From the IMG/VR virus record IMGVR_UViG_3300028048_000102, positions 31,568 through 95,567 of that record: 64,000 nucleotides of DNA, one strand, 5' to 3'. A model generated the notes under the pieces. That model was given only the letters and a program-made list of their open reading frames with translations, was not told the DNA's origin and did not search any database. The translations under genes and the position numbers were made by a program. How positions within the stretch are numbered: the first letter of the stretch is position 1; each line of letters begins with the position of its first letter. Shown piece after piece: positions 1 to 55,000 of this stretch. Origin of the DNA: a virus (taxonomy: Duplodnaviria > Caudoviricetes).

Positions 1-2
1 CT

Positions 3-284
3 ATTCAAAGTCTTAGTGCTACTTTAAATGCTATAAATTCTAGAATATCTACTTTGGATACTAATATTTCAACTCTGTCCTCATCATTAAATTCATTGAC
101 CTCTAGAGTTTCTTCATTAGAATCTAGAATGAATTCAGTAGAATCTAGAGCTTCTACTTTGGAATCTAATGTAGCTTCTATAGCTGCTAGAACTTCCTCA
201 CTGGAAACTAAAGTAAATAGCAGTAGCGGAGGTAGTAGCAGTGGTGGTAGCTATGATAATACTCATGGTTGCCCAGGTAAATAA
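3..284 (+). CDS. C-terminal part of a coiled-coil fibre-like protein (5' truncated by the window)
   Basis: Frame is open from position 3 (IQSLSATLNAINSRISTLDTN...). Ser/Leu heptad repeats, then a GS linker and the tail YDNTHGCPGK. Confidence 0.75.
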   Translation: MQSLSATLNAINSRISTLDTNISTLSSSLNSLTSRVSSLESRMNSVESRASTLESNVASIAARTSSLETKVNSSSGGSSSGGSYDNTHGCPGK

Positions 285-305
285 TATAATGAAAAATAAA
301 ATTAC

Positions 306-334
306 TCATTCCTCCATATTTTATGGAGGAATGA
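306..334 (+). terminator. hairpin, likely terminator
   Basis: TCATTCCTCCATA / TATGGAGGAATGA inverted repeat followed by a T-run. Confidence 0.6.
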
Positions 335-354
335 TTTTTATTAATTAAAGGGGT

Positions 355-1533
355 ATGATTATGGTACTTGATGCACTATTTATAATGCTTGGAAAAGAAT
401 GTAATGGTAATTGTATTTATTGTGTTCAACATGATAAAGAATCTACAGCTAGTGAAGAATACTATAAAGAATTACCTAAAGTAATGAAGAATGAATCAGA
501 CATAATAAATTTTATAGTTGATCAAGCTGAAGATACTCATGAATCATTAGTAAGAAAGAATATTATAAATGTATATGGCTTACAAATAATGACTCTATAT
601 TTTATAGGTGGAGAGCCTTTATTATATTATGATACTATTAAGCATATGATTGAATTGATATCAGAAAAAACTAAGAATATACGATATTCAATTATAACTA
701 ATGGTATTCTAATGAATAGAGAAATGAGTAACTTTTTTAATATATATGATGTATTAGTTAAACTAAGTACTGATGGTAAATCATCTATAAAAACTAGATT
801 GATAGATGTATTTGATAATAAGAGATGTAGAAATGCTATATTGAATTGCAATAATCTAAAACTATCTGGAGTAATAACTCCATATTGCTATCCTTTAGAA
901 TTGGTAGAAAGTTTTGGAGAGATACATAAAGAATATATGACTCGCCATTATAGTACTCCTTCATATAGTTTTTCTCATCTTGTATTTTCTAAAGGATGTA
1001 ATAAATCATTATTAGAATTAGATTGGGAGCATTTTGAAAATGATATGTTCCATATTATTGATATATGTAATTCTACTGAAATAAATGATGAGACATATCC
1101 TATGTATTATATTTATAATACTTTTTGCAAATATATTTCTGAGGGAATTAATACAAATAGAATCCCAATATATGGAGTATGCTATGAAGATTATAATACA
1201 TTGCATATGGATTTAGATGGCAATCTATATGAATGCCATAATAATACTAATCAACTATCTACAATTTATGAGTCATTAGATAATTTCATATCAGAATTAT
1301 CTAAACTAGATAAAAGAAAGATGGATATTGATAATAAATGTGAATCATGCATTGTAAAAAATCTATGTATTGGAATATGCAGACGTGGAGAAGATTATGA
1401 AATAAATTGTGAATATATGATTAAATTCTTCGCTGTATTACAGAATGCATTCTATAGAGGAATCGAAAAGTATAAAGAGCTTAAGAATTTTAATATAAAT
1501 AAAGCATTAAACTATATTAATTTAAAGGGGTAA
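355..1533 (+). CDS. radical SAM/SPASM-domain protein 1
   Basis: CNGNCIYC, GGEP, TNG, STDG; C-terminal DLDGNLYECH and CESCIVKNLCIGIC. Confidence 0.9.
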   Translation: MIMVLDALFIMLGKECNGNCIYCVQHDKESTASEEYYKELPKVMKNESDIINFIVDQAEDTHESLVRKNIINVYGLQIMTLYFIGGEPLLYYDTIKHMIELISEKTKNIRYSIITNGILMNREMSNFFNIYDVLVKLSTDGKSSIKTRLIDVFDNKRCRNAILNCNNLKLSGVITPYCYPLELVESFGEIHKEYMTRHYSTPSYSFSHLVFSKGCNKSLLELDWEHFENDMFHIIDICNSTEINDETYPMYYIYNTFCKYISEGINTNRIPIYGVCYEDYNTLHMDLDGNLYECHNNTNQLSTIYESLDNFISELSKLDKRKMDIDNKCESCIVKNLCIGICRRGEDYEINCEYMIKFFAVLQNAFYRGIEKYKELKNFNINKALNYINLKG

Positions 1534-1539
1534 AATAAT

Positions 1540-2553
1540 ATGAATTTAAAAGTTGAAGTTATTTTAGGCAAAGAGTGTAATTTAGATTGTAAGTATTGTA
1601 ATAATAAGATTATGAAAGTTGGAACTTTATCAAAAGATGAAGATATTGATATATATGTTTTAGAATTTTTAAAAAGAGTTCCAAATCAGATAGCATTTTA
1701 TGGTGGAGAACCTTTATTACATTGGGATAGAATCGTTAGAATTATTGAATATACTGATTGTGATAGATTTAAGATAGTAACTAATGGATATTATTTAGAT
1801 GAGGAAAAAGTAAATTTCTTAAATAAATATAATGTAGATGTAGTTCTATCTTGGGATGGTCATCTATCTACTGCTAGAAATTATGATGTTATTAAAGATA
1901 ATAAAAGTAATATATTGAAAATAGATAATCTAATGATTACTTCTGTAATTACAACACAGAACTATCTTAAATCATTCTTAGATGAATTAGAAGATGTAGA
2001 GAAAGAATATTTTGATATTCATAATAAATACTTTGATATATATGCTGTTGTAGTAAATGAAAGTGATCAATTTGATATAAAAGATATCAAAGAATTATTT
2101 GAATTTGATCTTAATAGATTAAATAGAGAAGCTCAATATGTATGTGATCATTACAATGATAAAATATCATATAAAGTATTTATAAACACTTTGAAATTAT
2201 TATACGATTTTGAAACTGTAAAGAATGTTCCTGGTTGCTTATATGGATATAATAGAATAGCTATAGATCTAAAAGGAAATTACTATGCATGCTTAGATCT
2301 TGACCTTAGTTATATCAATGATAAAAATATAATCAATACTTCAGTTACTGATGCATTAAATCTAATAAATAAAGTTGATAAGTATCCTAGTAGATATGAA
2401 GATATGTGTAAAAAGTGTAATGTTATAGATATATGTAAACATGGATGTTCATATTTATCTAAAGAACAATTAGAAACTACATATTGCCCACCTAGAAAAG
2501 CGTTATATACTCCTATAATAGAATTTTTAAATAAATTAGAAGATGAAGAATAG
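1540..2553 (+). CDS. radical SAM/SPASM-domain protein 2
   Basis: CNLDCKYC, GGEP, TNG, SWDG; CKKCNVIDICKHGC; close paralog of 2641..3642. Confidence 0.9.
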   Translation: MNLKVEVILGKECNLDCKYCNNKIMKVGTLSKDEDIDIYVLEFLKRVPNQIAFYGGEPLLHWDRIVRIIEYTDCDRFKIVTNGYYLDEEKVNFLNKYNVDVVLSWDGHLSTARNYDVIKDNKSNILKIDNLMITSVITTQNYLKSFLDELEDVEKEYFDIHNKYFDIYAVVVNESDQFDIKDIKELFEFDLNRLNREAQYVCDHYNDKISYKVFINTLKLLYDFETVKNVPGCLYGYNRIAIDLKGNYYACLDLDLSYINDKNIINTSVTDALNLINKVDKYPSRYEDMCKKCNVIDICKHGCSYLSKEQLETTYCPPRKALYTPIIEFLNKLEDEE

Positions 2554-2561
2554 TGTATAAT

Positions 2562-2590
2562 TATACCCTAGACGAAATGTCTAGGGTATA
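2562..2590 (+). terminator. hairpin terminator
   Basis: TATACCCTAGAC / GTCTAGGGTATA followed by TTTTT. Confidence 0.7.
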
Positions 2591-2599
2591 TTTTTCGAA

Positions 2600-2611
2600 A
2601 ACATTTTAATA
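2600..2611 (+). promoter_or_regulatory. putative late promoter AACA-N6-TA
   Basis: AACATTTTAATA; same motif precedes the sheath and other structural genes. Confidence 0.55.
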
Positions 2612-2640
2612 ATCAAGAAGAAAAATGAGGGGGACTATGT

Positions 2641-3642
2641 ATGGATATAGAACTCGTTTTAGGTAAAGAGTGTAATTTAAATTGTGCTTATTGCCATAAT
2701 AAAGAAATGCATATAGATAGTATAGATGCTGATAATATTCCAATATCAACATTAGATTTTTTAAAGAGAGTTCCAACTAAGTTAACGTTTTATGGTGGAG
2801 AGCCTTTAATGTATTGGGATCATATACATAAAATATTAACTGAGTATTATAATCCAAACTGTCATTATTATTTAATTACAAATGGATATTACTTGAATAA
2901 AGATATTGCTAAAGTACTAAATGAGTGCAATGTTACTGTTTATATTTCTTATGATTGTAATATAAGTTACAGAGGTTATGATGTAATTGAAGAGAATAAG
3001 TATAATATTATGTATCTAAATGATATGGCTATAATGGGAACTACTAATTCTCAAGATTATTTTAAATCTTTACTTGATAAATTAAATAGATTGGAAGAAG
3101 AATATTTCTTTAGTCATAATAAGTATTTCAATATTTATATTGATTTCATCAATAAGTTTGATGATACTAATAAAAATGTGAAATATAATGATATAGCTAA
3201 CTATGATCTTAGTACATTAGAAGCAGAAGCTAAATACATTTGTGATCATTATAATTCTTATACATCTTATAAGATGTTTTTAGATAGTCTAAAAGAAATG
3301 TATGATGATGAGATTATACCTAGCAGTCCATCTTGTAGATACGGCTATAATAAGACTGTAATAGATTTATTTGGCAATTATTATGCATGCTTAGATGATG
3401 ACGATAATAATAATTGTAATATAATAAGCAACTCTGTTGATGATGCATTGAACTTATTAAAGAAAAAAGATAAATATAAAGATAGATATACTACTATATG
3501 TGCTGAATGTAATGTTAGAAAAATATGTAAGAATGGATGTAGCTACTATACTAAAGAAGACTTAGAACAGTATTATTGCCCACCTAGAAAAGCATTTTAT
3601 GCTCCTATAATAGAATTTTTTAAAAATAAATTAAAAGATTAA
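2641..3642 (+). CDS. radical SAM/SPASM-domain protein 3
   Basis: CNLNCAYC, GGEP, TNG; CAECNVRKICKNGC; YCPPRKA shared with 1540..2553. Confidence 0.9.
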   Translation: MDIELVLGKECNLNCAYCHNKEMHIDSIDADNIPISTLDFLKRVPTKLTFYGGEPLMYWDHIHKILTEYYNPNCHYYLITNGYYLNKDIAKVLNECNVTVYISYDCNISYRGYDVIEENKYNIMYLNDMAIMGTTNSQDYFKSLLDKLNRLEEEYFFSHNKYFNIYIDFINKFDDTNKNVKYNDIANYDLSTLEAEAKYICDHYNSYTSYKMFLDSLKEMYDDEIIPSSPSCRYGYNKTVIDLFGNYYACLDDDDNNNCNIISNSVDDALNLLKKKDKYKDRYTTICAECNVRKICKNGCSYYTKEDLEQYYCPPRKAFYAPIIEFFKNKLKD

Positions 3643-3655
3643 GGAGGGATATAAG

Positions 3656-4051
3656 ATGGCTAGTACATCAATTAGAAATGTAATTCTGGAATTTAATGCA
3701 GAAGATAAAATTAGATGGCAAGAATTGGCACCATCATTACAAGCTATGATTAATGGAATATCTAATTCTGTTAATTTAGTGAATAGTAATTTAGAAGATA
3801 TAAGTGATAGAATATCTGCTTTAGAGAATAGAGTTTCAGTAATAGAATCTATAATCAATAGTGGTGGTGGAAGCAGTAGTGGTGGTGGAGGTGCTTATAT
3901 ACTTCCAACGGCTACTAATAATGTTTTAGGCGGAGTCAAAGTAGGAGAAGGTTTATCCATATCTCCAGAAGGTGTATTGAATATATCTGGTTCAGAATCT
4001 GGCGATACATATGATATTGCTGAAGATGGAATAGCTGATCAATTGATTTAA
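3656..4051 (+). CDS. fibre-associated structural protein
   Basis: Short coiled coil, GS linker, and YILPTAT..LGGVKVGEGLSISPEGVL repeat typical of phage fibre proteins; SD GGAGG. Confidence 0.65.
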   Translation: MASTSIRNVILEFNAEDKIRWQELAPSLQAMINGISNSVNLVNSNLEDISDRISALENRVSVIESIINSGGGSSSGGGGAYILPTATNNVLGGVKVGEGLSISPEGVLNISGSESGDTYDIAEDGIADQLI

Positions 4052-4117
4052 TTATTTTTGGGTAATATTCCATTATTGGATATATTATTATAGATTAAAA
4101 GGAAGGAGAGATGCTAT

Positions 4118-4843
4118 ATGGCACTCACAGAAGCCCAACTTGCAAAAATTGCAAGAATTAAAGACTTGCAGACACTCGCTACAAAGGTTAAGACACTTTT
4201 TAACTCATCTGTAACAAGCGTTGATCTTGCTAAAGATACAACTGCCACTGAAGGGTATGCAGCAAGTTACACCTTGAGTGTTAACGGTACTCCTCTTAGT
4301 ACCAAGATTAACATTCCTAAGGATTTCCTCGTAAAATCTGCTACTTTGGCAACTGTATCAACTGCTGATACTCCTTATACTGGAGCAGCAATTGGTGATA
4401 AGTACATTGATTTCGTTATCAATGCTAAGGACGCCTCTGATGGTACTGGTGCAGAGCACATTTATCTGCCTGTAAGTGATCTCGTAGATACTTATACTGC
4501 AGGTAACGGTCTTTCTTTGAGCAGCGGTGCATTTAGTGTAGCTATTGATAGTACTAATGCTAACGGTCTGTCCGTAAGTGCTAGTGGTCTGGCTTTGGCA
4601 ACTGCTACTGCTTCTACTAGTGGTACTGGTGGTTCCAACGGTGCTATGTCCGCAACCGATAAAGAGAAGTTGAATGGTATTAGCACTCAGGCAACCAAGA
4701 CAACTGTAACTACTGAAAAGGCTGGTACTATTGAAATCGATGGTGTATCTAAGGTTATTGTTGATATTGCTACAGATTCCGATGTTACTGCTATGATGGA
4801 TGAAGTTTTCCCTTCTAGCTCAGGTGGCGGCACTGGAGAATAA
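4118..4843 (+). CDS. tail/head fibre-like structural protein
   Basis: Ala/Thr/Ser/Gly-rich; YTAGNGLSLS and GAMSATDKEKLNGI motifs common in phage fibre proteins. Confidence 0.65.
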   Translation: MALTEAQLAKIARIKDLQTLATKVKTLFNSSVTSVDLAKDTTATEGYAASYTLSVNGTPLSTKINIPKDFLVKSATLATVSTADTPYTGAAIGDKYIDFVINAKDASDGTGAEHIYLPVSDLVDTYTAGNGLSLSSGAFSVAIDSTNANGLSVSASGLALATATASTSGTGGSNGAMSATDKEKLNGISTQATKTTVTTEKAGTIEIDGVSKVIVDIATDSDVTAMMDEVFPSSSGGGTGE

Positions 4844-4867
4844 TAAGTTATAACCAAAAAAAAAACT

Positions 4868-4900
4868 GAAAGGGACTAAATAGTCCCTTTCTTTTTTTTT
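4868..4900 (+). terminator. intrinsic terminator
   Basis: GAAAGGGACTA / TAGTCCCTTTC + T9, preceded by an A-run. Confidence 0.85.
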
Positions 4901-4922
4901 AGAAAGTAGTGGTGTAAATAAT

Positions 4923-6266
4923 ATGGCAAATACGATCATTACGCTAGAACAACTAGAATATATTTTATTAGAATTAAAAGATTATATTGATAATAATGCA
5001 GGTACCACTATTGGCTGGGATTATGTGCTTAATAAGCCAGTATCTTTCCCGCCATCAAGTCATACCCATGATGATAGATATTATACAGAGGATGAAGTAG
5101 ATACTTTACTATCTGGCAAGTCTGATACTGGTCATACACATAGTCAGTATTTAACTGAGCATGCTACTGTAGATGATGCTTTAAGTGCTACTAGTACTAA
5201 CGCAGTACAAAATAAAGTAGTTCAAGCAGCATTGGCTGATAAGTCTGATACTGGCCATACTCATGATAATAGATATTACACAGAGAATGAAGTAGATACA
5301 TTATTAGATGGTAAGTCTGATACTGGTCATACTCATAGTCAATATTTGACTGAACATGCTACTGTAGATTCAGCTTTAAGTTCTACTAGTACTAATGCTG
5401 TACAAAATAAAGTTATAAATACAGCATTAGCTGGAAAGGCAGCTAGTGATCATACTCATAGCCAGTATTTAACTGCTCATGCCCCTGTAGATTCAGCATT
5501 ATCAAGTACTAGCACCAATGCTGTACAAAATAAAGTTATAAATTCAGCTCTAGCTGGCAAGTCTGATACTGGTCATACTCATAGTCAGTATTTAACTGAA
5601 CATCAAGATATTTCTGGTAAAGCTAATACAAGTGGAACTTATCCTAGTTTAATATCTGGAGGAGTTAGAGATTATAACAATGGATCTACTATCACTTTTG
5701 GATATTCAACTGCTGGAATGACTTCTACATCATGGTTAGCATCTTGGGATGGATATAGATTAAGAGCTATAGCACCCGCAAATGTTTCTGCTGGTTATGC
5801 ATCTACGGCTGGTACTGCTAATTCAGCATATTATGCTGACTATGCAGAGTTTTTCCCTCGTGGAGAAGAAACAGAAGTTGGAGATATTATTGCACTTGAT
5901 GAATTTTCTGAAGATGAAAAGTATGTTAAAGCAACTGAAAACTCTATATGTGTAATTGGAGTTCATTCAGAGGATTATGGTATAATTGTTGGTGGTGAAA
6001 ACCCTAAAGATGATATAGTAACAAGAGATAATTATTTTAAATATAATATTTCTAAATATATTCCTGTAAGTTTAGCAGGACGTGTTCCTGTTAAGTTTAA
6101 AGGTATATCTCATAAAGGTGTAAGAGTAGTACCTTCTGAAATACCTGGAGTTGGTAGAGCTTTTGATGCAACTAAAGATGATAGAGATTCTATTATAGGC
6201 TATCTTGTAGAATCTGATAATGGAGATAACGAAGAAATAAGATTACTTAAAATGAAAATAAAGTGA
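4923..6266 (+). CDS. tail fibre protein with HxH repeats and a C-terminal peptidase G2/intramolecular-chaperone-like domain
   Basis: Repeats of GKSDTGHTHSQYLTEH and ALSSTSTNAVQNKV; C-terminal ADYAEFF...GDII...IGV.S...PVSLAGRVPVK. Confidence 0.8.
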   Translation: MANTIITLEQLEYILLELKDYIDNNAGTTIGWDYVLNKPVSFPPSSHTHDDRYYTEDEVDTLLSGKSDTGHTHSQYLTEHATVDDALSATSTNAVQNKVVQAALADKSDTGHTHDNRYYTENEVDTLLDGKSDTGHTHSQYLTEHATVDSALSSTSTNAVQNKVINTALAGKAASDHTHSQYLTAHAPVDSALSSTSTNAVQNKVINSALAGKSDTGHTHSQYLTEHQDISGKANTSGTYPSLISGGVRDYNNGSTITFGYSTAGMTSTSWLASWDGYRLRAIAPANVSAGYASTAGTANSAYYADYAEFFPRGEETEVGDIIALDEFSEDEKYVKATENSICVIGVHSEDYGIIVGGENPKDDIVTRDNYFKYNISKYIPVSLAGRVPVKFKGISHKGVRVVPSEIPGVGRAFDATKDDRDSIIGYLVESDNGDNEEIRLLKMKIK

Positions 6267-6276
6267 GGTAATAATT

Positions 6277-7398
6277 GTGGGGAAATTTTTGAATTTAGGT
6301 TGTAATACATTGATGTTTATAATGGGGCAGGGATGTAATCTTAGTTGTTCATACTGTTTAAAACATACTCTAATAAATGAGCAGTTACCTGTAAACGTAT
6401 CTCCAGTAATTTTTGAATATTTGGATTTCTTAGCTGAAGAAGGTACTTGTCCAATTAATTGTAACTACTTTGGTGGAGAACCTCTTGTTTATTATGATGG
6501 CGTTAAATCTATTGTAGAGCATTGCAATCAAATAGAACAAAGACTAGATAAAAAGATTTTTCACCACTCAATGATTTCAAATGGAAAGTCACTTAATGAA
6601 GAAATAGTAGAGTTTCTTAATAAAAATAACTTTGCTTATACTATAAGCTGGGATGGTAATAATAGTATAGAAACTAGAGGATATGATGTTATAGAAGACA
6701 AGTTTGATTTATTACTAAAAATAAATAATCTTGGAATATCATCTGTGATATCTTCTAAGTCGTATCCTCTAGATGTAGTAAATGCAATGCAGAAATTTGA
6801 TGATGAATATTTTGCTAAGAACAATAGCCATGTTCGTTGTAATTTTGATGATATAATGGATACTGGTGTTGGAGTTGAAAATCAAGAACTATGCAAAATT
6901 GATCCTGAGAGATTTGAATCAGATATTCAAAAGATTTTTGATATGTATGAAGAAGATGTATTAAGTAATCAGACTTTATTAAATAAATATCATGTTGCTA
7001 TAAGATACTGTATGAATAATATTAACTCAATTAAACATTATCTAAAAGAAGGACCTAATAAAATTTCTAGATGTGGTCAAGGATTGGAAGTTTTAAATCT
7101 TGATATGTCTGGAAAAATTTATGATTGTCATAACGTTACTACAGGTGAAATTGGGCATTTGCAGTATGATAGTATTCCATTTATTAGAAATATAATAGCT
7201 AGTGAATATAAAACTATGCATAGAATAAATACTATTTGTAAAGATTGTCAAGCTATATCACTTTGTGGTGGTGGATGTAAATATGTAGAAGATGAAAGAA
7301 TAGGCACTTCTTGCATGCAGAGTATTATCAAATTCAATGTGATTTCAGATAGATTAATAAAGTTAGCAGAGAAAGTTGGTGAAGCAAGTGGCTGTTAA
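6277..7398 (+). CDS. radical SAM/SPASM-domain protein 4
   Basis: CNLSCSYC, FGGEP, SNG, SWDG..RG; NLDMSGKIYDCH, CKDCQAISLCGGGC; GTG start. Confidence 0.92.
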   Translation: MGKFLNLGCNTLMFIMGQGCNLSCSYCLKHTLINEQLPVNVSPVIFEYLDFLAEEGTCPINCNYFGGEPLVYYDGVKSIVEHCNQIEQRLDKKIFHHSMISNGKSLNEEIVEFLNKNNFAYTISWDGNNSIETRGYDVIEDKFDLLLKINNLGISSVISSKSYPLDVVNAMQKFDDEYFAKNNSHVRCNFDDIMDTGVGVENQELCKIDPERFESDIQKIFDMYEEDVLSNQTLLNKYHVAIRYCMNNINSIKHYLKEGPNKISRCGQGLEVLNLDMSGKIYDCHNVTTGEIGHLQYDSIPFIRNIIASEYKTMHRINTICKDCQAISLCGGGCKYVEDERIGTSCMQSIIKFNVISDRLIKLAEKVGEASGC

Positions 7399-7741
7399 TG
7401 GTGCAATATCTAAAACAAGTTTTACTGACCAAAGTTCTTTAGCAGATAGTGTAACATCTGTTAAAGCTAAAACTGTTCATATAAATGAATTAAGAACTGC
7501 TGTTGATACTTTAACAAGTGCTAGTGCAAATGTGGATAATTGTGGTAATTGTACTTTTTGCCAAGGAAATCAAAGTAATCAAAATTGCCAAACAGATGGA
7601 TGTGAAGGATGTCAAACTTCTTATAATCAATCTTGTGAAACTTGTCAAACCTGTCAAAATGCCACTTTAAATCAATCTAATCAAGCAAATCAAAGTAATC
7701 AAGGATATAATTATAATAGTTGTCAATCAAATCGTCGTTAA
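7388..7741 (+). CDS. Cys/Gln/Asn-rich protein A, candidate radical SAM substrate
   Basis: Probable GTG start at 7388 (ORF track starts 7376). N-terminal KTVHINELRTAV, then 10 Cys in (C/N)Q(S/T)-type triplets. Confidence 0.75.
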   Translation: MAVNGAISKTSFTDQSSLADSVTSVKAKTVHINELRTAVDTLTSASANVDNCGNCTFCQGNQSNQNCQTDGCEGCQTSYNQSCETCQTCQNATLNQSNQANQSNQGYNYNSCQSNRR

Positions 7742-7757
7742 GGTGAGGTGATATAGA

Positions 7758-8195
7758 ATGGCTTATACAGATACTATAACGACAGGTACTCAAGTTAAAT
7801 TAGTACATGCTAAAGAATTAAAAGAGCAAATGGAAACACTTGCTACTAATGCAAGCGTATCAGTTTCTTTTACTGGATGGGGTACTTCAAAACCAACAAA
7901 AGTTAATATGGAGCTTTTACAAAATGCATGTAATAAATTAGAAGACGAATTTTCTTATAATTGTTGTCAGAATGATTGTTGTCAAACAAATCAGTCAAAT
8001 TGTAAAAATCAATCTGTATTAAATCAAACTAATCAAACTTGTGAAACTGCTGCTTGTGAATCTTCAACTTGTCAAACTAATCAAAAAGATCAGGCATGTC
8101 AATCTTATACTAATCAAGGTAATTGCTCATCATATAATCAAAGTTGTCAAAATAATATGTCTTGCGGTGGCTGTGGCGGTTGCGGTGGTATGTAA
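7758..8195 (+). CDS. Cys/Gln/Asn-rich protein B, candidate radical SAM substrate
   Basis: SD GAGGTG; N-terminal KLVHAKELK; 15 Cys; ends CGGCGGCGGM. Confidence 0.8.
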   Translation: MAYTDTITTGTQVKLVHAKELKEQMETLATNASVSVSFTGWGTSKPTKVNMELLQNACNKLEDEFSYNCCQNDCCQTNQSNCKNQSVLNQTNQTCETAACESSTCQTNQKDQACQSYTNQGNCSSYNQSCQNNMSCGGCGGCGGM

Positions 8196-8218
8196 TTGTA
8201 ATTAAAGAGGTATAATAT

Positions 8219-9289
8219 ATGTTTAATTTTGGTAGTTATAGGCTTAAAATTATACTAGGTAGTGCTTGTAATTTACATTGTAAATATTGTGAGCAAAATA
8301 GTAATATATGTAAGTTACCAGAAGTTATATCTAGTAATTTATTACACTATTTGAAATGGATTAACGGGTTTAATGAAAGAACTAGAATTCAATTTTTTGG
8401 CGGAGAACCATTACTTTATTTAGATAAAATAAAACAACTTGTACAGTTTATAGAGAAAGAAAATCTAAATAACTTTGCGTTAGATATACCAACTAATGGT
8501 AAATTACTTACAGAAGAAATCATTGATTATTGTAATAAACATAACATAGTTTTATGCTTATCTTGGGAAGGTAAAAATACTAAATTAGATAGAGGATATG
8601 ATGTTATAGAAGATAAAAAAGACTTAATTTTTAAAATAAAAAATTTAGCTTTTTCGAGTGTATGGACAAAAAATTCTTTACCATTTGATGCTTTAAGTGA
8701 TGTTCAAAATATTCTAAATGATTATAGAATACAAACTGGATTAAATTATAGAATAAATGCTAATTCATTATTTATGTGTGATTTATCTGGTAATAATTCT
8801 TTAAATATATATGATTTAAATATTTTAACGGAACAATATAAGAAAATATTTAAAGTATATAAAGAATATATGAATAATCATTCTCAGGAATATTATGAAA
8901 ATAATAGATTAATAATAGAATATGTACAATATTTAATTTCAACTATTCGAAAAGAATTACAAAATCCTACAAAAAATGCTTGGTGTGATTCTATTGTAGA
9001 CACTTTAAATTTAGATTTAGATGGTAATATTTATAAATGCCCTTTATTATTAAATGAGCCTATAGGTAATGTAATAACTGATTCAAATAGAGTATTATTA
9101 CAAAACTATGCTTATTCTGAATTAAATATTATGAATCGTAGAGAGAATATGTGTAAAGATTGTGCAGCTCATGTTATATGCCGTGGTGGTTGTAAAGAAG
9201 TATCTAATAAAAATATTGAATCGAATTGTAAATTATGGAAAGGTTTATTTGAAATAATTTATAATGAGATAATAAGTATAAGTTCATAG
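8219..9289 (+). CDS. radical SAM/SPASM-domain protein 5
   Basis: CNLHCKYC, FGGEP, TNG; DLDGNIYKC, CKDCAAHVICRGGC. Confidence 0.92.
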   Translation: MFNFGSYRLKIILGSACNLHCKYCEQNSNICKLPEVISSNLLHYLKWINGFNERTRIQFFGGEPLLYLDKIKQLVQFIEKENLNNFALDIPTNGKLLTEEIIDYCNKHNIVLCLSWEGKNTKLDRGYDVIEDKKDLIFKIKNLAFSSVWTKNSLPFDALSDVQNILNDYRIQTGLNYRINANSLFMCDLSGNNSLNIYDLNILTEQYKKIFKVYKEYMNNHSQEYYENNRLIIEYVQYLISTIRKELQNPTKNAWCDSIVDTLNLDLDGNIYKCPLLLNEPIGNVITDSNRVLLQNYAYSELNIMNRRENMCKDCAAHVICRGGCKEVSNKNIESNCKLWKGLFEIIYNEIISISS

Positions 9290-9299
9290 AGGTGTTTTA

Positions 9300-10325
9300 A
9301 TGCTATCACCAAATTTTGATACTATTTATTTAATGCTTGGATTTGATTGTAATGCTAGTTGTAAATATTGTTTACAAAAAGGTATTCAAAAATCTTTATC
9401 TACAGAAATAAATGAAGATATAATAGATTTTATATCAAGTTTTAACAATAAAAATTTTCTAGTTACTTTTATTGGTGGTGAACCTTTATTATATTGGGAT
9501 AAAATTAAATATATTGTACAAAAAGTACATAATAAAAAGGTTTATTCAAAGTATAGAATATTTACTAATGGATTGCTACTAGATAATGAGAAAATAGAAT
9601 TTCTAAATAAAAATGATTTTAATGTTTCATTATCATGGGATGGTATAAATACTAATCAAACTAGATCGTTTGATATATTTTCTATGAATAGTAAAATATT
9701 GAATATCAAAAATTTGCTAATAAATTCAATTCTTACTAAATACTCTTATCCTAGCGATATTATAGATGGAGTTATTAAGATAAATGAAAAGTATAAGAAA
9801 ATTCATGGATATAATTTAAGAATGCATATAGAACCATTTTGTGATACTGGTACTTGTAATCAAGATTCTCTTAATAATATGGACTATAATAAGTTATATG
9901 AAGAAATCTATAATTTAACTACTAAAGTTTTAAATAATAATGGGGAAGATTTAATATATCAAGAATTTATCTTAGATAAGTTAAATAAAATAACTAATGG
10001 ATTGAAATATGATCCAGTTATTAGTAGAGGCGGTTGCAAATGTGGTTGGAATCATCTAAATATGGATCTACAAGGTAATTTATATAGATGCCATAATACC
10101 ATACAGTTAGTTGGAAATATAAATGATACCTTAGATATGTATTATAAAAAATTATCACAAGTAGATACTAGAAAAAGGGATACGAGATGTAGTGATTGTG
10201 AAGTAAGATGGCTTTGTCAAGGTGGATGTAAAACAGTACCTGAAGAATTAGAAGAAAAATATTGCGAAGTTCAAAAAGCCTATTATATAGGATTTTATAA
10301 AGCTTTAGAAGACTGGGGGAAATAA
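9300..10325 (+). CDS. radical SAM/SPASM-domain protein 6
   Basis: CNASCKYC, GGEP, TNG, SWDG; DLQGNLYRCH, CSDCEVRWLCQGGC; paralog of 10327..11427. Confidence 0.92.
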   Translation: MLSPNFDTIYLMLGFDCNASCKYCLQKGIQKSLSTEINEDIIDFISSFNNKNFLVTFIGGEPLLYWDKIKYIVQKVHNKKVYSKYRIFTNGLLLDNEKIEFLNKNDFNVSLSWDGINTNQTRSFDIFSMNSKILNIKNLLINSILTKYSYPSDIIDGVIKINEKYKKIHGYNLRMHIEPFCDTGTCNQDSLNNMDYNKLYEEIYNLTTKVLNNNGEDLIYQEFILDKLNKITNGLKYDPVISRGGCKCGWNHLNMDLQGNLYRCHNTIQLVGNINDTLDMYYKKLSQVDTRKRDTRCSDCEVRWLCQGGCKTVPEELEEKYCEVQKAYYIGFYKALEDWGK

Positions 10326-10326
10326 T

Positions 10327-11427
10327 GTGTTAGGGTATAGTTTTGAAAGCGTTTATTTAATGCTAGGCTCAGATTGTAATGCAAATTGTTCTTATTGTTT
10401 GCAAAAGGGTAATACTAAAAAACAAAAATTTCCAGATAAATTGAATTATAAAGTAATTGACTTTATTGAGTTAATGGCTTCTAGATATTATGAATCACAA
10501 GAAAATACTCCAGTAAATAATAGAAAATATTTTTGGGTAACTTACTTTGGTGGAGAACCATTATTAAAATTTGATTTGATAAAAGAAGTAAATGAAGAAC
10601 TTTTAAAAAGAGGAGTTATTTTTAGAAGTTCTATAATAACTAATGGGTTATTATTAGATGAAGATAAAGTAAATTATTTCAATAAACATAATTTTGTTGT
10701 AGCACTTTCGCATGATGGGCTATACTCTAAGAAAAATAGAGGATATAATGTATTTGAAATAGTTGATTCTAATGTGATTATGAAAATAAATAGGTTAGCA
10801 CTTAATGCAGTGCTAACTGTTAATTCTTATCTTGATGATATTATAGAAGATTATTTGAATATAAATGAGAAGTATAGTGAAGTTCATAATTATAATATTG
10901 AAATGAATATAGAAACTTTCTTAGATACTGGAAGTTGTAATCAAGAAAAGTTAGATGATTTTGACTATGATAAATTATATAATCAATCTTATAATTTAAT
11001 GATGAAATATGCTAAAGGAAATTATAATGATAAAACTTTACCATCAAATAATTTAATATCAAAATATATCAAAGAATTTATATTAAAAGTAAAAAATAAT
11101 ATAAATTCCACTCCAGAAAGGGGTGGATGTTATTGTGGCCGAAAGGTATTAAATTTAGATTTAGATGGTAATTTGTATAGCTGTCATAATTCAAGTTTCC
11201 CTATAAGTAGAATAGAAGATAGTATAAATGATTACTTTATTAATCTAGGATGTGCAGATAGACGAGTAAATGTTCCTCCATGTGAAGATTGTTATGTAAA
11301 GTTCCTTTGTGTTGGAGGATGTAAAATGGTTCCTGAAGAACTAGATGAAAAATACTGTAAGATGCAAAGAGCTTTTTATGGTGGATTTATAAAAGCTTTA
11401 TGCGATTGGGGTGAAAATTGTGATTAA
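10327..11427 (+). CDS. radical SAM/SPASM-domain protein 7
   Basis: CNANCSYC, FGGEP, TNG, SHDG..RG; DLDGNLYSCH, CEDCYVKFLCVGGC. Confidence 0.92.
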   Translation: MLGYSFESVYLMLGSDCNANCSYCLQKGNTKKQKFPDKLNYKVIDFIELMASRYYESQENTPVNNRKYFWVTYFGGEPLLKFDLIKEVNEELLKRGVIFRSSIITNGLLLDEDKVNYFNKHNFVVALSHDGLYSKKNRGYNVFEIVDSNVIMKINRLALNAVLTVNSYLDDIIEDYLNINEKYSEVHNYNIEMNIETFLDTGSCNQEKLDDFDYDKLYNQSYNLMMKYAKGNYNDKTLPSNNLISKYIKEFILKVKNNINSTPERGGCYCGRKVLNLDLDGNLYSCHNSSFPISRIEDSINDYFINLGCADRRVNVPPCEDCYVKFLCVGGCKMVPEELDEKYCKMQRAFYGGFIKALCDWGENCD

Positions 11428-11962
11428 TTATTATCTTAAGTTGGGAAAGGTTATTAAAGGTAAAAAATTAGATAATAATTACTATATTGGAACTAATTTT
11501 GTTTATGAATCTGAACAAGAACCAGAGAAACATAAACAATTATACCATGGTAATTATTTAATAATGGATACATGGGGTGATAATTGGTTTTTAAAATTAC
11601 CATATGATAATGCTAGTGGAAGTGTTCTTTTAAGTGGTTTAGGATTAGGTGTTTTACCTAATTTATTATTAACTAAGACAGAAGTAACAGAAATATTAAT
11701 AGTTGAAAAAGAAAAATCTATTATTGATTATATAAAACAATATATAGATTCTGATAAAGTTAATTATATTTGGATGGATATAAGAGATTATCATCCAGAT
11801 AAAGAATTTGATTATTGTTTTATTGATATTTGGTGTGACGAAAATAGAAAAGAAAGAGAATCAGATGAGAAAATATTACTTGAAAATCTTTCATCATATT
11901 GTAAGAGAATTGATTTTTGTCAAACTTTAGAAGAAGCTAAAAAATATTGTGGGGAGGAATAA
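11411..11962 (+). CDS. class I SAM-dependent methyltransferase / spermidine-synthase-like protein
   Basis: VLLSGLGLG motif I, acidic IVEKE, FDYCFIDIW; start may be GTG at 11420. Confidence 0.7.
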   Translation: MKIVINYYLKLGKVIKGKKLDNNYYIGTNFVYESEQEPEKHKQLYHGNYLIMDTWGDNWFLKLPYDNASGSVLLSGLGLGVLPNLLLTKTEVTEILIVEKEKSIIDYIKQYIDSDKVNYIWMDIRDYHPDKEFDYCFIDIWCDENRKERESDEKILLENLSSYCKRIDFCQTLEEAKKYCGEE

Positions 11963-11965
11963 ATT

Positions 11966-12583
11966 ATGGCATATGGTGAATGGTTACCAAAATTAAATCC
12001 ACAGTATGGTGGATTTGAAGATGGTGATGTAATAGCTTATGAAGAAAGAGATAATATAGTTGGATATAGAAAAGCTAATTCCAATGATAAGTTTATTATT
12101 GGTGTAGTTTGTAATGGCTGTACTGCATTTAGTCATACAGAACCAAATCCATTCTTTTATGATTCTGCTGGTAATGAAATAGAATTTAAAGATAATCAGG
12201 AAAAAACTTCATATGGATTTATTCCTGTAGCTTTAAATGGTATTGTTAGAGTCAAATTCAAAGGCGAATTTGTTTCTGGTGGATTAGTGTGTATGTCTGA
12301 TGTACAAGGAGTATCAAGATTACAAACTAATCCTGATACTGAAGTAGCTTTTGGTAAACTCTTAAATGATATAAGTCCTAGTGAAGGTGAAGAAGAATCA
12401 ATAAGATATGTAGATATAATACTATTAGATAATAGTATTCTTACTAAAATTGATAATACAGATCAGGAAACTGAAGCTTTAATTGCTGAGAACAAAGAAT
12501 TAAAGGAGCAAGTTTCTGAGCTTAATGATGCATTATTAGAAGTAATGTTTGGTTCAGAAGAGGAATCTTTTGATGAATTATAA
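11966..12583 (+). CDS. stand-alone peptidase G2/chaperone-like domain plus coiled coil (tail fibre accessory)
   Basis: YGEWLP..GDVI..IIGVV..IPVALNGIVRVKFKG parallels the C-terminus of 4923..6266; tail ELKEQVSELNDALLE. Confidence 0.6.
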   Translation: MAYGEWLPKLNPQYGGFEDGDVIAYEERDNIVGYRKANSNDKFIIGVVCNGCTAFSHTEPNPFFYDSAGNEIEFKDNQEKTSYGFIPVALNGIVRVKFKGEFVSGGLVCMSDVQGVSRLQTNPDTEVAFGKLLNDISPSEGEEESIRYVDIILLDNSILTKIDNTDQETEALIAENKELKEQVSELNDALLEVMFGSEEESFDEL

Positions 12584-12597
12584 GGAGTTGTTAAATT

Positions 12598-12762
12598 ATG
12601 GCAAGTTTTTTGGCAAGAAATCTTATTGCAGGTAAAATCAAATGGTCTCAGATTGAGAATTCTAAGACTTATGCTAAGTATGCGGATGCTACACTTGTAA
12701 TACTGGAAGAACAAGGTTACATAATTGATGAAAATGGTAATTGTGTACCAGCCTCTAACTGA
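12598..12762 (+). CDS. small 54-aa protein closing the tail-fibre module (XkdX/CD1375-like position)
   Basis: SD AAGGAG; MASFLARNLIAGKIKWSQI...; below the ORF-track cutoff. Confidence 0.55.
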   Translation: MASFLARNLIAGKIKWSQIENSKTYAKYADATLVILEEQGYIIDENGNCVPASN

Positions 12763-52030: not shown

Positions 52031-55000
52031 ATGACTCCAGTCGTAGAATATATCAAAAATGTTGGTAAATCATTTGTATATACAACTGTAGAACAGTTGA
52101 AAATGGATATGCCAGCAACTAAAGAATTTATGGATTCTAATGAAGAACTCTTCAAAGATACATATCATTCCATAATGAATATACGACGGACTAAGAATCG
52201 GTTTGTTGCTTCTATAAAAAGAACTGGATTATATGAAGCTGCAGACTATGCATTTGATAATATTGTAGATTCTTTTAAGACTGGTAAATTTAATGATCCG
52301 TATCGTCAAGCTAAAGCAGATTCAGAAATGTTTGATTTTGGTGATTTTGAATCTGGCGATAGTGATATGTCTATAAGTAACCTTGGCGATTCCACAAGTA
52401 CTGGTGGATCAATGGATGAAAATACCAAGGCTGTTCTTGATTCTGGTGCAGCAAATGCTAAAACTGTATCTACTGCAACTCTTGAGTCTGCTAGATATAT
52501 AGCAGGAGTATCTAAAGCAAATACTTCTTTATTATTCAATCAGACTTTACAAATGAATCAAACTTTATCTGCTGGATTTAGTGGATTAAATGCTGGTATG
52601 GATTCATTAAATAAGTTTAATATTGAAGTAGTACAAACTTTAGCTCAGAATGCAACTACATTTTTCCAAAAGACTACAGATATATTGAAAGAAAATAATG
52701 CTATGTTCAAGGAATTCCTTGAAATGCAAAGAAATCTATATAGAAAAGAAAATGAAGAAACTAAAGGTCATGATCTTGAAGATGTATTAGGTGTTAATGG
52801 TACACCTAATCTTAAAGCATATAAGAATATGATTCTTAAGAATATTAAGAATGAAGTAGGAGAATACTTTGGAGTAGATTTAGAGTCTATATTAGATGGA
52901 CCAATGCTAAAATCTATGATGGCTAATCCATTATCAGCTATTCCAGGAATAATGATGAGTGCTGCTATGGGTCCTATGCTCAGAGTATCACTTAAGAAAA
53001 TGGATGATACTATTAGTGGATTATTCACAAACTTTTTAGCAAAGATGACATTTAATGCTAATGATGATAATGCTCCTTGGTATAAGCAATTATTTGGAAA
53101 GATATTTGGAGCTCATTATTTAGATAAATCTGGTATTAGAACCGAAAATACTAAAAATGGCCCTACTCCATTTGATTTTCAAACTAAAAGAGCAATTACT
53201 GAAGTAATACCTGGGTATTTAGCTCGAATTGAAGCGGGTATTACTGGAAACTCTCCGAAATTATATGATGATAGATCTGGTAAATGGACTGATATTAAGA
53301 CTGTTAAGAGACAGTTTGAAAATCAGCAAGAATCTAATAAATTACAAGGCTCATCTGAATTAAATTATGAAATGAATAGAAATATGAGAGATAGTAATTT
53401 AGATGAAAAAATTATCAAGATCATGAATCAAGCTATGGAAAAAGTAGCTAAACAAAGATATGCTGATAATGGTCATTTAGAAACTTTTGATGGTGATATT
53501 TCTAAATTTGCTGATTATTATGGATTAGATGAAAAAGTTGCAAAATTATTTGCAGAATTATATAATAGTACTTCTAAAGAAACCAGATCAAAAACTGCTG
53601 GAAATATTATACAATCAAAACTTCAAAATATTAGATCTTTAAAAGATGAAGAGAAACTTGGAAATCAAAGTTTATATCGTCAATTATTTACTGAAGGTTT
53701 TGATGATATAGCTGAAAATATTGGTGGTGCATTTGATCTCAATAATATGAGTGATAAACATGGTGCTACTGTATTTGATTACTTGCGTTCTATTGATATA
53801 AATACTAGCAATATTGGTGCTGGAAAAGGTAAAAAGAGAAAGGGTAAAGGAACTTGGAAAGATAAACAAAATACTCCTGTTCTTGATACTATAGAGGAAG
53901 AAGAAAATTATAATACTTTAGATATTGATGAAGATCAAATGAATGAATTAGCTCAGCGTATTGCTGAAGCTGGTAAAACTAATAGAGATTTAGATTTACA
54001 GTTAAAATTAAAAGATAAAGAAACTAATATCACTGATCATATAGCTGAATTATTAGATAACTTAGATGAATTAGTTCATATCAATGATATGAAATATAAA
54101 GGAAATTTTGGTACTAAGTATATTACTAATAATAAAACTCTTCAGGATTTAATCAAAAAGGCTCAAGTTCCAGGAAATACACTGGCTAAATTAATAGATA
54201 AAGCAAATAATAAACTTGATGATGGAGCTGATATACCAGTAGTACCATCTTATTCAGATGGAGCAGTTGAAGTAAAACGTAGTGGAATTGGTATATTCTC
54301 TGGAGGAGAAATTATAATTCCAAATGCATCTGAAAAACAAAGAAAGCTTGATGCTATAAATGAAGAAAAGATTCGTCAAAAATTTATTAGTCAAGCTAAA
54401 GATGCTCCAGCTTTTTCAGAAGGTGGAGAATATAAGACTGATGATAATCAAAAGCCTAAAAAGCCAACTATGAATTCTTTTGTAAAAGATGTAAAAGGCT
54501 GGGTTGGAAATTTAAAATCTGAAATTGATGGTGAAGCAGTAGGTATAGATTCTGTATATAATCGTATAAAAGAAATTATAATCGGTGATAGTGATAAAGA
54601 GACTAAGGAAGCTGTAAAGAAAGTAGAAGATGAAATTAAAAGTAAAGTACCTAATGCTGCTACTGGAGGAGTGCTTGGTGCTATTGGTGGTACAATGATT
54701 GGTGGTCCATTAGTAGGTGCTGTATTAGGTAGTGCTTTAGGTATTGCTTCTAGTACTGAAACTGTACAATCAGCATTATTTGGTGATAAGATTCTTGATG
54801 AAAATGGTAATGATACTGGTAAAAGAGATAACGCTGGTGCTTTCTCCCAAGAAGCTCAGAAAACTATGAAGAAATATTTGCCAGATATGAAAAAGTTTGG
54901 TATTGGTGGAGCATTGCTCGGAATGTTTACTCCATTTGGTATTCTTGGTGGAGCTTTAATGGGGTCTGCTGTTGGATTTATTAAAAATAATGAACAAGCT

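Follow-up and report, generated by a model that had tools for sequence, protein, structure and literature searches.

Tail-fibre cassettes of phages combine radical SAM/SPASM genes with two cysteine-rich proteins that may be stapled by thioether links

Introduction

What is the role of two small cysteine-rich proteins that are encoded between a tail-fibre gene and a series of radical S-adenosylmethionine (SAM) enzyme genes in a phage? This question is raised by a stretch of 64,000 nucleotides, referred to here as the window, which spans positions 31,568 to 95,567 of the Caudoviricetes record IMGVR_UViG_3300028048_000102. Protein A (117 amino acids; 7388..7741) and protein B (145 amino acids; 7758..8195) are encoded next to each other on the + strand. 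Radical SAM enzymes are known to staple small secreted peptides with thioethers, as well as a few cellular proteins (QhpC, CrpA). A and B belong to a protein family with the fixed gene order fibre, radical SAM enzyme, A, B. The explanation that we favour, with modest confidence, is that both are fibre-associated proteins whose N-terminal units assemble or dock and whose cysteine (Cys) cores are stapled with thioether links by radical SAM enzymes.

Protein A and Protein B

Protein A starts at a GTG at 7388, giving MAVNGAISKTSFTD, in agreement with the MA.NG.I..T.FT start of its homologues. Residues 1-55 (7388-7552) comprise one strand-helix unit with the motif KTVHINELR and the invariant junction NVDNCGNC, and residues 52-117 form a core of (C/N)Q(S/T) triplets. 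Protein B starts with unit 1 (residues 3-31, YTD..VKLVHAKELK), and a linker separates this from a second helix (residues 48-68), the counterpart of A's pre-core helix in alignments; the junction FSYNCCQ and the core come next. A preliminary description of this DNA had reported both reading frames, their 10 (A) and 15 (B) Cys residues, a common K-x-V-H-x-x-E-L-(R/K) motif and the C-terminus CGGCGGCGGM of B, and all of these are present. The two-part build that it proposed is real and is conserved in the alignments of A-type and B-type proteins. A and B are weakly alike in both parts, with BLASTP E values of 2e-4 for the N-motif segment and for the core segment. The enrichment in triplets was also borne out: strict [CN][QE][ST] triplets occur 9 times in A and 10 times in B as against about 1.0 per shuffled core, and the observed count was reached in none of 20000 shuffles that preserved each core's own composition.

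A Conserved Gene Cassette

Relatives were found by aligning four radical SAM paralogues of the window and scanning IMG/VR with that alignment, and related phage contigs bear the A/B pair right behind a radical SAM gene. The A-type consensus is MA.NG.I..T.FTD....K.VHI.ELR.AL.KL.TY.ANVDNCGNC followed by CQ.CQ(S/T) runs, and the B-type consensus is the first unit, a linker and then ..LQ.AI.KLE..FSNNCCQ.NCCQTCQ. A profile of the A type matches 286 proteins of 48-205 amino acids (E <= 0.01), all of them unnamed and a few labelled Caudoviricetes or Siphoviridae. Other routes led to little. A and B match no NCBIfam or Pfam model at E <= 0.01 and no PHROGs family; tblastn of B against GenBank phages, with the low-complexity filter on and the window's own record possibly excluded, gave no match; B alone in a word-index search matched only itself; and searches for related loci with single proteins (B, or the radical SAM enzyme at 8219) gave no relatives.

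The gene order was examined with a degenerate DNA pattern for NVDNCGNC, which was run against IMG/VR and which holds the signature of A only and no enzyme information. It was found in 41 stretches, 40 of which encode an A-type open reading frame (ORF). In all 40 of them, the end of a same-strand radical SAM ORF lies immediately before A. Where the stretch leaves room, a B-type ORF lies downstream of A (34 of 36), and an ORF ending in the autochaperone-type C-domain of the fibre lies upstream of the radical SAM gene (31 of 31). The window shows the whole family signature, i.e. the N-terminal unit, the NVDNCGNC (A) or FS.NCCQ (B) junction, the CQ(S/T) core and the gene order. Homologues that routinely stand apart from radical SAM genes, which the preliminary description had held up as the finding to look for, are thus not what is seen. 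With a radical SAM gene directly next to A in 40 of 40 loci, the neighbouring radical SAM enzymes very probably have the Cys-rich part as their substrate.

The cassette occurs in several tail-gene contexts, some of which were found by exact-protein look-ups. One consists of this record and contigs of 160-260 kb. The nearest relative of the window has the same layout. Another is found in siphovirus-like elements with the order TMP, Dit, further genes, fibre, radical SAM, A, B, further genes, radical SAM, further genes, holin and endolysin; one such element sits in an NCBI bacterial assembly. The remaining context has P2-type baseplate surroundings.

Radical SAM/SPASM Enzymes of the Cassette

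The one radical SAM gene that is invariably present in the cassette is of the type found at 6277..7398 (+; 373 amino acids; PF04055 and TIGR04085), which overlaps the start of A by 11 nucleotides. Three more follow B on the same strand at 8219..9289 (356 amino acids), 9300..10325 (341 amino acids) and 10327..11427 (366 amino acids). Their assignment as radical SAM/SPASM enzymes comes from domain models and a four-way alignment, in which the products of 9300..10325 and 10327..11427 group together. All four belong to the radical SAM superfamily, with PF04055 scores of 34-41 bits (cut-off 29.5), and the SPASM model TIGR04085 is listed for three of the four with 38-42 bits (cut-off 27). The paralogues have in common C20, C24 and C27 of the CxxxCxxC motif, and C266, C284, C321, C324, C330, C334 and C346 of a 7-Cys SPASM domain.

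In NCBIfam the four enzymes match PapB, QhpD and the SCIFF maturase best, but their scores of 58-107 bits stay far below the cut-offs of 340-453 and leave them outside these families. PapB (NF047865) is the best match, at 97-107 bits against a cut-off of 340. The enzyme at 6277..7398 scores 107 bits with PapB and, second, 98 bits with QhpD (TIGR03906; cut-off 453). Scores with the SCIFF maturase TIGR03974 are 58-90 bits against a cut-off of 425, and TIGR04463, the CrpC type, matches only the enzyme at 10327-11427, at 36 bits against a cut-off of 525. By this likeness the enzymes are of the thioether type of SPASM protein and fall in no curated family. The closest solved structure is CteB (E 2.8e-30), aligned only from CteB residue 97, so that the peptide-binding recognition element (RRE) of enzymes acting on peptides that are made on ribosomes and modified after translation (RiPPs) is absent. 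The next closest structure is anSME, which is also RRE-less and acts on proteins. Formylglycine formation of the anSME type was considered for A and B and dropped, as no C/S-x-P/A-x-R motif is visible in either.

N-Terminal Strand-Helix Unit

The unit has the pattern (F/Y)TD...K.VH..EL(R/K)...L and occurs once in A and once in B. The preliminary description left open whether this N-terminal domain is a leader or a docking helix. An exhaustive HMMER search with the N-domain of A (50 profile positions) gave 1052 representatives at E <= 1e-3, and many of them contain the unit three times in tandem and no Cys core. Examples are small proteins, some with a hydrophobic N-terminus resembling a signal peptide, an M23 peptidase and a fibre-like protein encoded directly before a holin. 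Triple (F/W)TD...KAVHIxELR repeats (P0129, P0139, P0147, P0157 and about 1000 more representatives) are often C-terminal in secreted or phage proteins. No Pfam model was found for the triple-repeat family, and no radical SAM gene lies beside Cys-free triple-repeat proteins in two short contigs with readable neighbours. A hidden Markov model (HMM) built only from the units of Cys-free triple-repeat proteins matches A at residues 23-42 (E 1.6e-9) and B at residues 3-21 (E 1.1e-4). Judged by these matches, the N-domain is one copy of a widespread structural or assembly unit and no dedicated leader, because the same unit stands in tandem threes in Cys-free proteins. Docking or assembly is therefore the half of the earlier proposal that is favoured, by the tandem units and by the fusions described below, and the cleaved RiPP leader is the half that is not.

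The unit HMM misses the second helix of the B encoded in the window and gives marginal matches to that of three relatives (E 0.016-1.3). This helix corresponds to the pre-core helix of A in BLASTP, where A residues 26-93 match B-type residues 46-113 (E 2e-7). One unit in A and two helices in B make three, as in the single-chain triple repeat. AlphaFold2 models the triple repeat as three units, each an extended segment plus a helix, with a predicted local distance difference test score (pLDDT) of 82.5 and a predicted template modelling score (pTM) of 0.73. For B it gives two helices in the N-terminal part (pLDDT 75-82) and a core at a pLDDT of about 33. Foldseek with the triple-repeat model found nothing in the Protein Data Bank (PDB) at E <= 0.001. 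The best VIA-align analogues, a designed filament (Z 7.3), the Vps30 BARA domain (Z 6.4) and Beclin 1 (Z 5.9), consist of three beta-alpha repeats, at scores that fall in the range given by the tool as noise for helical models. The ESM Atlas returned only clusters of 'hypothetical protein', one of which (score 0.82) has 19% of members with PF27846 (rSAM target, Cxxx repeat), a lead at most.

Most likely, the strand-helix unit brings A and B together in three helices, docks them on the fibre, or does both. Prediction of a complex between the N-domains of A and B gave an ipSAE of 0.41 against 0.01 for the best control, with at least 85% contact agreement between runs and a partner pLDDT of at least 63; the support from this is weak. 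The pass mark of the test let through 58 of 80 solved complexes and 2 of 110 mismatched pairs, and passes at 0.60 or under came from only 7 of the 80 solved complexes and from both of the mismatches that passed.

Fusions and Links to the Tail Fibre

Fused forms show in what kind of protein the A and B modules are used. P0177 is a LamG-domain protein with a complete A module at its C-terminus, and the gene that follows it in the locus L089 (322 amino acids) ends in a B-type helix and core, with ThiF and three radical SAM genes next to it. In P0125, P0133 and P0058 an A module is followed by a C-terminal Hint-like domain (S/G-CFIAGT...). The fused forms speak for A and B as modules of fibre-type proteins and against leader-core peptides. 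The ThiF/E1-like adenylyltransferase (L089:4144-4812) lies between the LamG-A/B fusion genes and the radical SAM trio, one of which is a double-length fusion, and its product is a further tailoring step in that relative. Siphovirus-like cassettes (L086:7783-8187, L091:6681-7049, L092:6752-7129) encode, after B, a Hint-like protein of 122-134 amino acids without an N-terminal Cys. These Hint-like partners point to self-cleavage at the C-terminus of the Cys-rich tail, or to its ligation, in some relatives.

The fibre gene of the cassette (4923..6266, +) encodes 447 amino acids with HxH 'phage tail repeat' units (Pfam PTR, E 8e-8). Its C-domain of about 150 amino acids starts with DYAEFF at about 5800, beginning YYADYAEFFPRG; it is nearly Cys-free, and in every related locus the ORF that immediately precedes the radical SAM gene is 39-50% identical to it. 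Its profile has as best PDB match 3gqh, the autochaperone of the phi29 preneck appendage, with a weak E of 0.0036 and an alignment at DFAEYFE, and this autochaperone-type domain has no Pfam match. A free-standing domain of the same type (205 amino acids; 11966..12583, +) matches fibre residues 307-440 in BLASTP (E ~5e-7). Its start coincides exactly with the putative cleavage motif (MAYGEWLP vs DYAEFFP), a coiled coil comes after it, and a homologue stands at the same place in the nearest relative (L084). One possible role for this free-standing domain is to help A and B, or a fibre, to fold in trans.

Composition of the Cys-Rich Cores

Among the 107 A-type members whose composition was counted, the cores are nearly pure CQ(S/T): Gln follows Cys in 56% and Cys spacing is 3 in 47%. 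The conserved C-terminal tail of the family is acidic (CGDDS/GDDGG). In the lineage of the window, Asn occupies about half of the family's Cys positions, with the Gln and Ser/Thr of the triplet retained; CQGNQ, SNQNCQT and TNQGNC of the window align with CQTCQ, STCQKCQT and RCQREC of relatives. Short tandem repeats of 9 and 18 bp encode the NQ(S/T) units at the DNA level. NQ[ST] units occur in only 2 of the 107 members, namely A of the window and P0068. The exchange of Asn for Cys is thus real as far as the alignments go, yet peculiar to the window lineage. The preliminary description had placed Asn and Cys in the same triplet register, which is right for the positions replaced and wrong for a single register, as the triplets of A and B occur in all three phases with no single unbroken period. 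Its Cys/Asn ladder does not extend to the family. A beta-solenoid finds no support, and AlphaFold2, which leaves the core of B unpredicted, gives no evidence against one either.

Further motifs may bear on the chemistry. NxxC occurs twice in A (NQNC, NQSC) and four times in B (NDCC, NQTC, NQSC, NMSC), and recurs in P0068, the nearest Asn-rich relative, with NQSC 4 times. C-x3-[Q/E/D] has 9 matches in A and B together, 8 ending in Gln or Glu and 1 in Asp (CCQND, in B). A 6-bp GCGGTG repeat codes for the CGGCGGCGGM end of B (window 8164-8188). In the nearest relative (L084:7375-7806) B ends in TTCCCCCGM, so a terminal Cys run and GM are kept despite different spacing.

A Possible Route to a Cross-Linked Fibre Part

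In the mechanism that we propose, the N-terminal unit would join A with B into three helices, would dock them on the fibre, or both. RRE-less radical SAM/SPASM enzymes would then modify the C-terminal (C/N)Q(S/T) region, and the core enzyme would be the one that is translationally coupled to A. Several thioether links of the ranthionine type would be formed, each from a Cys sulfur to a side-chain carbon of a nearby residue. Gln, Asn, Thr or Ser are the putative acceptors, by analogy with PapB, NxxcB, CteB and CrpC. At or near the tip of the fibre, a floppy low-complexity tail would thereby become a rigid knot that withstands reduction and proteases.

A more far-reaching version, to which we give a small chance, has A and B form a three-helix heteromer that copies the triple repeat and caps the fibre after the autochaperone cut, with the thioether knot as the host-binding tip. 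Radical SAM enzymes would weave this knot within and between chains from both Cys-rich tails. In the Asn lineage, Cys-to-Asn beta-thioethers (NxxC) would stand in for some of the Cys-Gln/Thr links, and the extra radical SAM paralogues would match this change.

Comparison With Known Systems

The closest published case is CrpC/CrpA. CrpC of Methanococcus voltae installs ranthionine links in the Cys-repeat protein CrpA, and CrpA and CrpB are alike in an N-terminal region but not in their Cys-rich C-terminal repeats (PMC13692751). As with A and B, a SPASM enzyme lies beside two substrate-like Cys-repeat proteins that are not short peptides, and the cores of both the CrpA type and the A/B type are of low confidence in structure prediction. 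CrpC differs in having an RRE and belonging to TIGR04463, whereas the window enzymes have none; the CrpA repeats are 17 residues long in place of triplets; and the setting is cellular and archaeal in place of a phage fibre module. The streptococcal radical SAM RiPP (RaS-RiPP) enzyme NxxcB links Cys to the beta-carbon of Asn in NxxC and tolerates Gln (PMC9389541). NxxC motifs are common to its substrate NxxcA and A/B, a likeness by motif. NxxcA is a short quorum-regulated peptide, and most A-type members have no Asn in their triplets.

The PapB/PapA (freyrasin; NF047865) and CteB/SCIFF (TIGR03974, PDB 5WGG/5WHY) systems have Cys-rich cores and supply the best family and structure matches of the four enzymes. 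The window enzymes score 58-107 bits against cut-offs of 340-425 for these systems, and A and B match no precursor model. The PapA precursor has a repeated Cys-X3-Asp, whereas A and B have no repeated CX3D. The SCIFF precursor (TIGR03973) has about 45 amino acids, whereas A and B have 117 and 145, a folded N-terminal part and a place in a virion module; CteB, unlike the window enzymes, has an RRE. The preliminary description also saw a resemblance to the SCIFF core. This holds for a short string only, as SCIFF presumably contains CQTSC, like the CQ(S/T)C units of A and B; it does not hold at the level of precursor or enzyme family.

QhpD is a radical SAM/SPASM enzyme that staples the small Cys-containing subunit QhpC by several Cys-to-Asp/Glu thioethers. 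QhpC is the gamma subunit of a quinohemoprotein amine dehydrogenase; no dehydrogenase genes are present here, and the proposed acceptors are Gln, Asn, Ser or Thr instead. The phi29 gp12 preneck appendage (PDB 3GQH/3SUC) is a possible counterpart for the fibre only, whose DYAEFF domain resembles its autochaperone by the weak match given above; unlike the cassette phages, phi29 has no radical SAM genes and no Cys-rich partners. In the literature, no description was found of a phage radical SAM/SPASM/ranthipeptide system with fibre or structural proteins. One cyanophage paper lists a radical SAM 'antibiotic synthesis' gene and nothing more. The A/B pair as a family, the fixed four-gene cassette, the N-domain as a triple-repeat unit and the lineage-specific Asn-for-Cys variant are new.

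Weighing the Alternatives

Several observations weigh against thioether-stapled cores on a fibre. The A/B core is not predicted to fold (pLDDT ~33). About half of the Cys positions are Asn in the window lineage, so many Cys donors must be dispensable, and this exchange suits a purely structural or compositional role equally well. The enzymes lie far below every curated family threshold, and formylglycine-type oxidation or C-C links may be alternative reactions. Seven radical SAM genes for 25 Cys are more than the model needs, and some of the seven enzymes may act on other fibre proteins. The pairing of A with B has the weak complex prediction behind it, and the B-type module of the LamG locus has one helix only. 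Finally, the cassette count includes near-identical phages, although their radical SAM ORFs begin at about eight different offsets from the signature.

The Cys cores might be unmodified, binding metal (Zn, Fe, Fe-S) or forming disulfides, with the radical SAM enzymes acting on the fibre or on a small molecule. The dominant CxxC spacing in the family would suit this, as would a faint zf-CXXC Pfam match of A (E 0.078) and the surplus of radical SAM genes over obvious substrates in the window. However, it is difficult to account for the translational coupling of the radical SAM gene to A, and for the adjacency in 40 of 40 loci, unless there is a direct connection between them, and the conserved C-domain of the fibre, the other proposed target, is almost without Cys. 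Asn is a poor Zn or Fe ligand and yet takes about half of the Cys positions with Gln and Ser/Thr kept, and there is precedent for radical SAM modification of Cys-repeat proteins. We regard this explanation as having a small but real chance of being right. A slim chance is given to A and B being precursors of a phage-encoded secreted RiPP, i.e. a ranthipeptide- or sactipeptide-like bacteriocin or signal, with the N-domain as a cleaved leader that guides the enzymes. The two proteins do look like leader and core, there are two precursors with a common N-terminal motif, the enzymes are nearest to RiPP maturases, and the acidic C-terminal tail together with the Hint-fused members points to processing of the C-terminus in some relatives. 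Nevertheless, none of the loci read had a gene called as an ABC exporter, a leader peptidase or an immunity protein, the sequences show neither a signal peptide nor a double-glycine site, and the enzymes have no RRE. The supposed leader is a common structural repeat that is also found without a Cys core, large LamG-type domains precede A and B modules in fusions, and the pair invariably lies with the fibre gene on one side and the lysis genes on the other.

The (C/N)Q(S/T) units could also be sites of glycosylation or other tailoring on a flexible decorated tail with no cross-linked knot. NQS and NQT fit the N-x-S/T sequon and arose by local 9- and 18-bp duplications, and the methyltransferase-like neighbour has a faint match to a Maf glycosyltransferase N-domain (E 0.046). 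This is highly improbable: Pfam and PHROGs scans recognised no glycosyltransferase in the module, and NQ[ST] is limited to the 2 of 107 members, whereas the radical SAM linkage is universal.

Genome and Neighbouring Genes

The source record is a 95.6-kb IMG/VR virus fragment, of which the window is the 3' two thirds. CheckV estimates its completeness at 38%, which implies a genome well above 200 kb. The G+C content of the window is about 28%. Bases 1-12600 form a tail-fibre module with the order fibre proteins (ELAPSLQ), three radical SAM genes, two small fibre-like proteins, the 447-amino-acid fibre and then the cassette; after the fibre come radical SAM 6277-7398, A, B, three radical SAM genes (8219-11427), a methyltransferase-like gene and the ORF 11966-12583. 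The small methyltransferase-like protein (183 amino acids; 11411..11962, +) matches phrog_15480 (methyltransferase, E 1.7e-9) and has only faint Pfam matches to MTS/Methyltransf_25. It was seen only in this lineage, with a 49% identical homologue in L084.

The other three radical SAM genes of the module (355-1533, 1540-2553 and 2641-3642, all +) lie between other fibre genes. The products of 1540-2553 and 2641-3642 match phrog_1802, that of 355-1533 matches only phrog_27668 (unknown function, E 9.8e-6), and all three have CxxxCxxC close to the N-terminus. Directly upstream of this trio lies the gene of a coiled-coil fibre protein (window 3-284, +; its start is at L082:19730) whose C-terminal end is made up of a Gly/Ser linker and YDNTHGCPGK; together they may be a second substrate-enzyme unit. 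At least 4 fibre-like proteins (L082:15293-20000, window 3656-4051) have a common N-terminal (K/R)(V/I/L).(Y/W).ELAPSLQ, which is probably a common docking sequence of several fibres on one baseplate adaptor. ELAPSLQ was considered as a relative of VHxxEL and dropped, since the unit HMM gives no match to those proteins. At the far end of the window, 52031-64000 (+) is a single open reading frame of more than 3990 amino acids that runs past the window end.

Significance

In at least three tail-gene contexts, one enzyme class is locked gene for gene to a Cys-rich pair and a tail-fibre gene. If the cross-links and the virion location are true, phages would mature the part that recognises the host by radical chemistry, a step that is absent from current pictures of virion assembly and that would require an anaerobic, reducing host. 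Under the more far-reaching version, the cassette would yield the first virion adhesin with enzymatic cross-links. The family would also provide a large unnamed set of natural substrates of cross-linking enzymes (at least 286 A-type proteins) and a new small assembly domain (at least 1052 representatives), and could be of use in engineering fibre tips of very high stability. The Asn-for-Cys lineage supplies natural variants for telling donor from acceptor residues.

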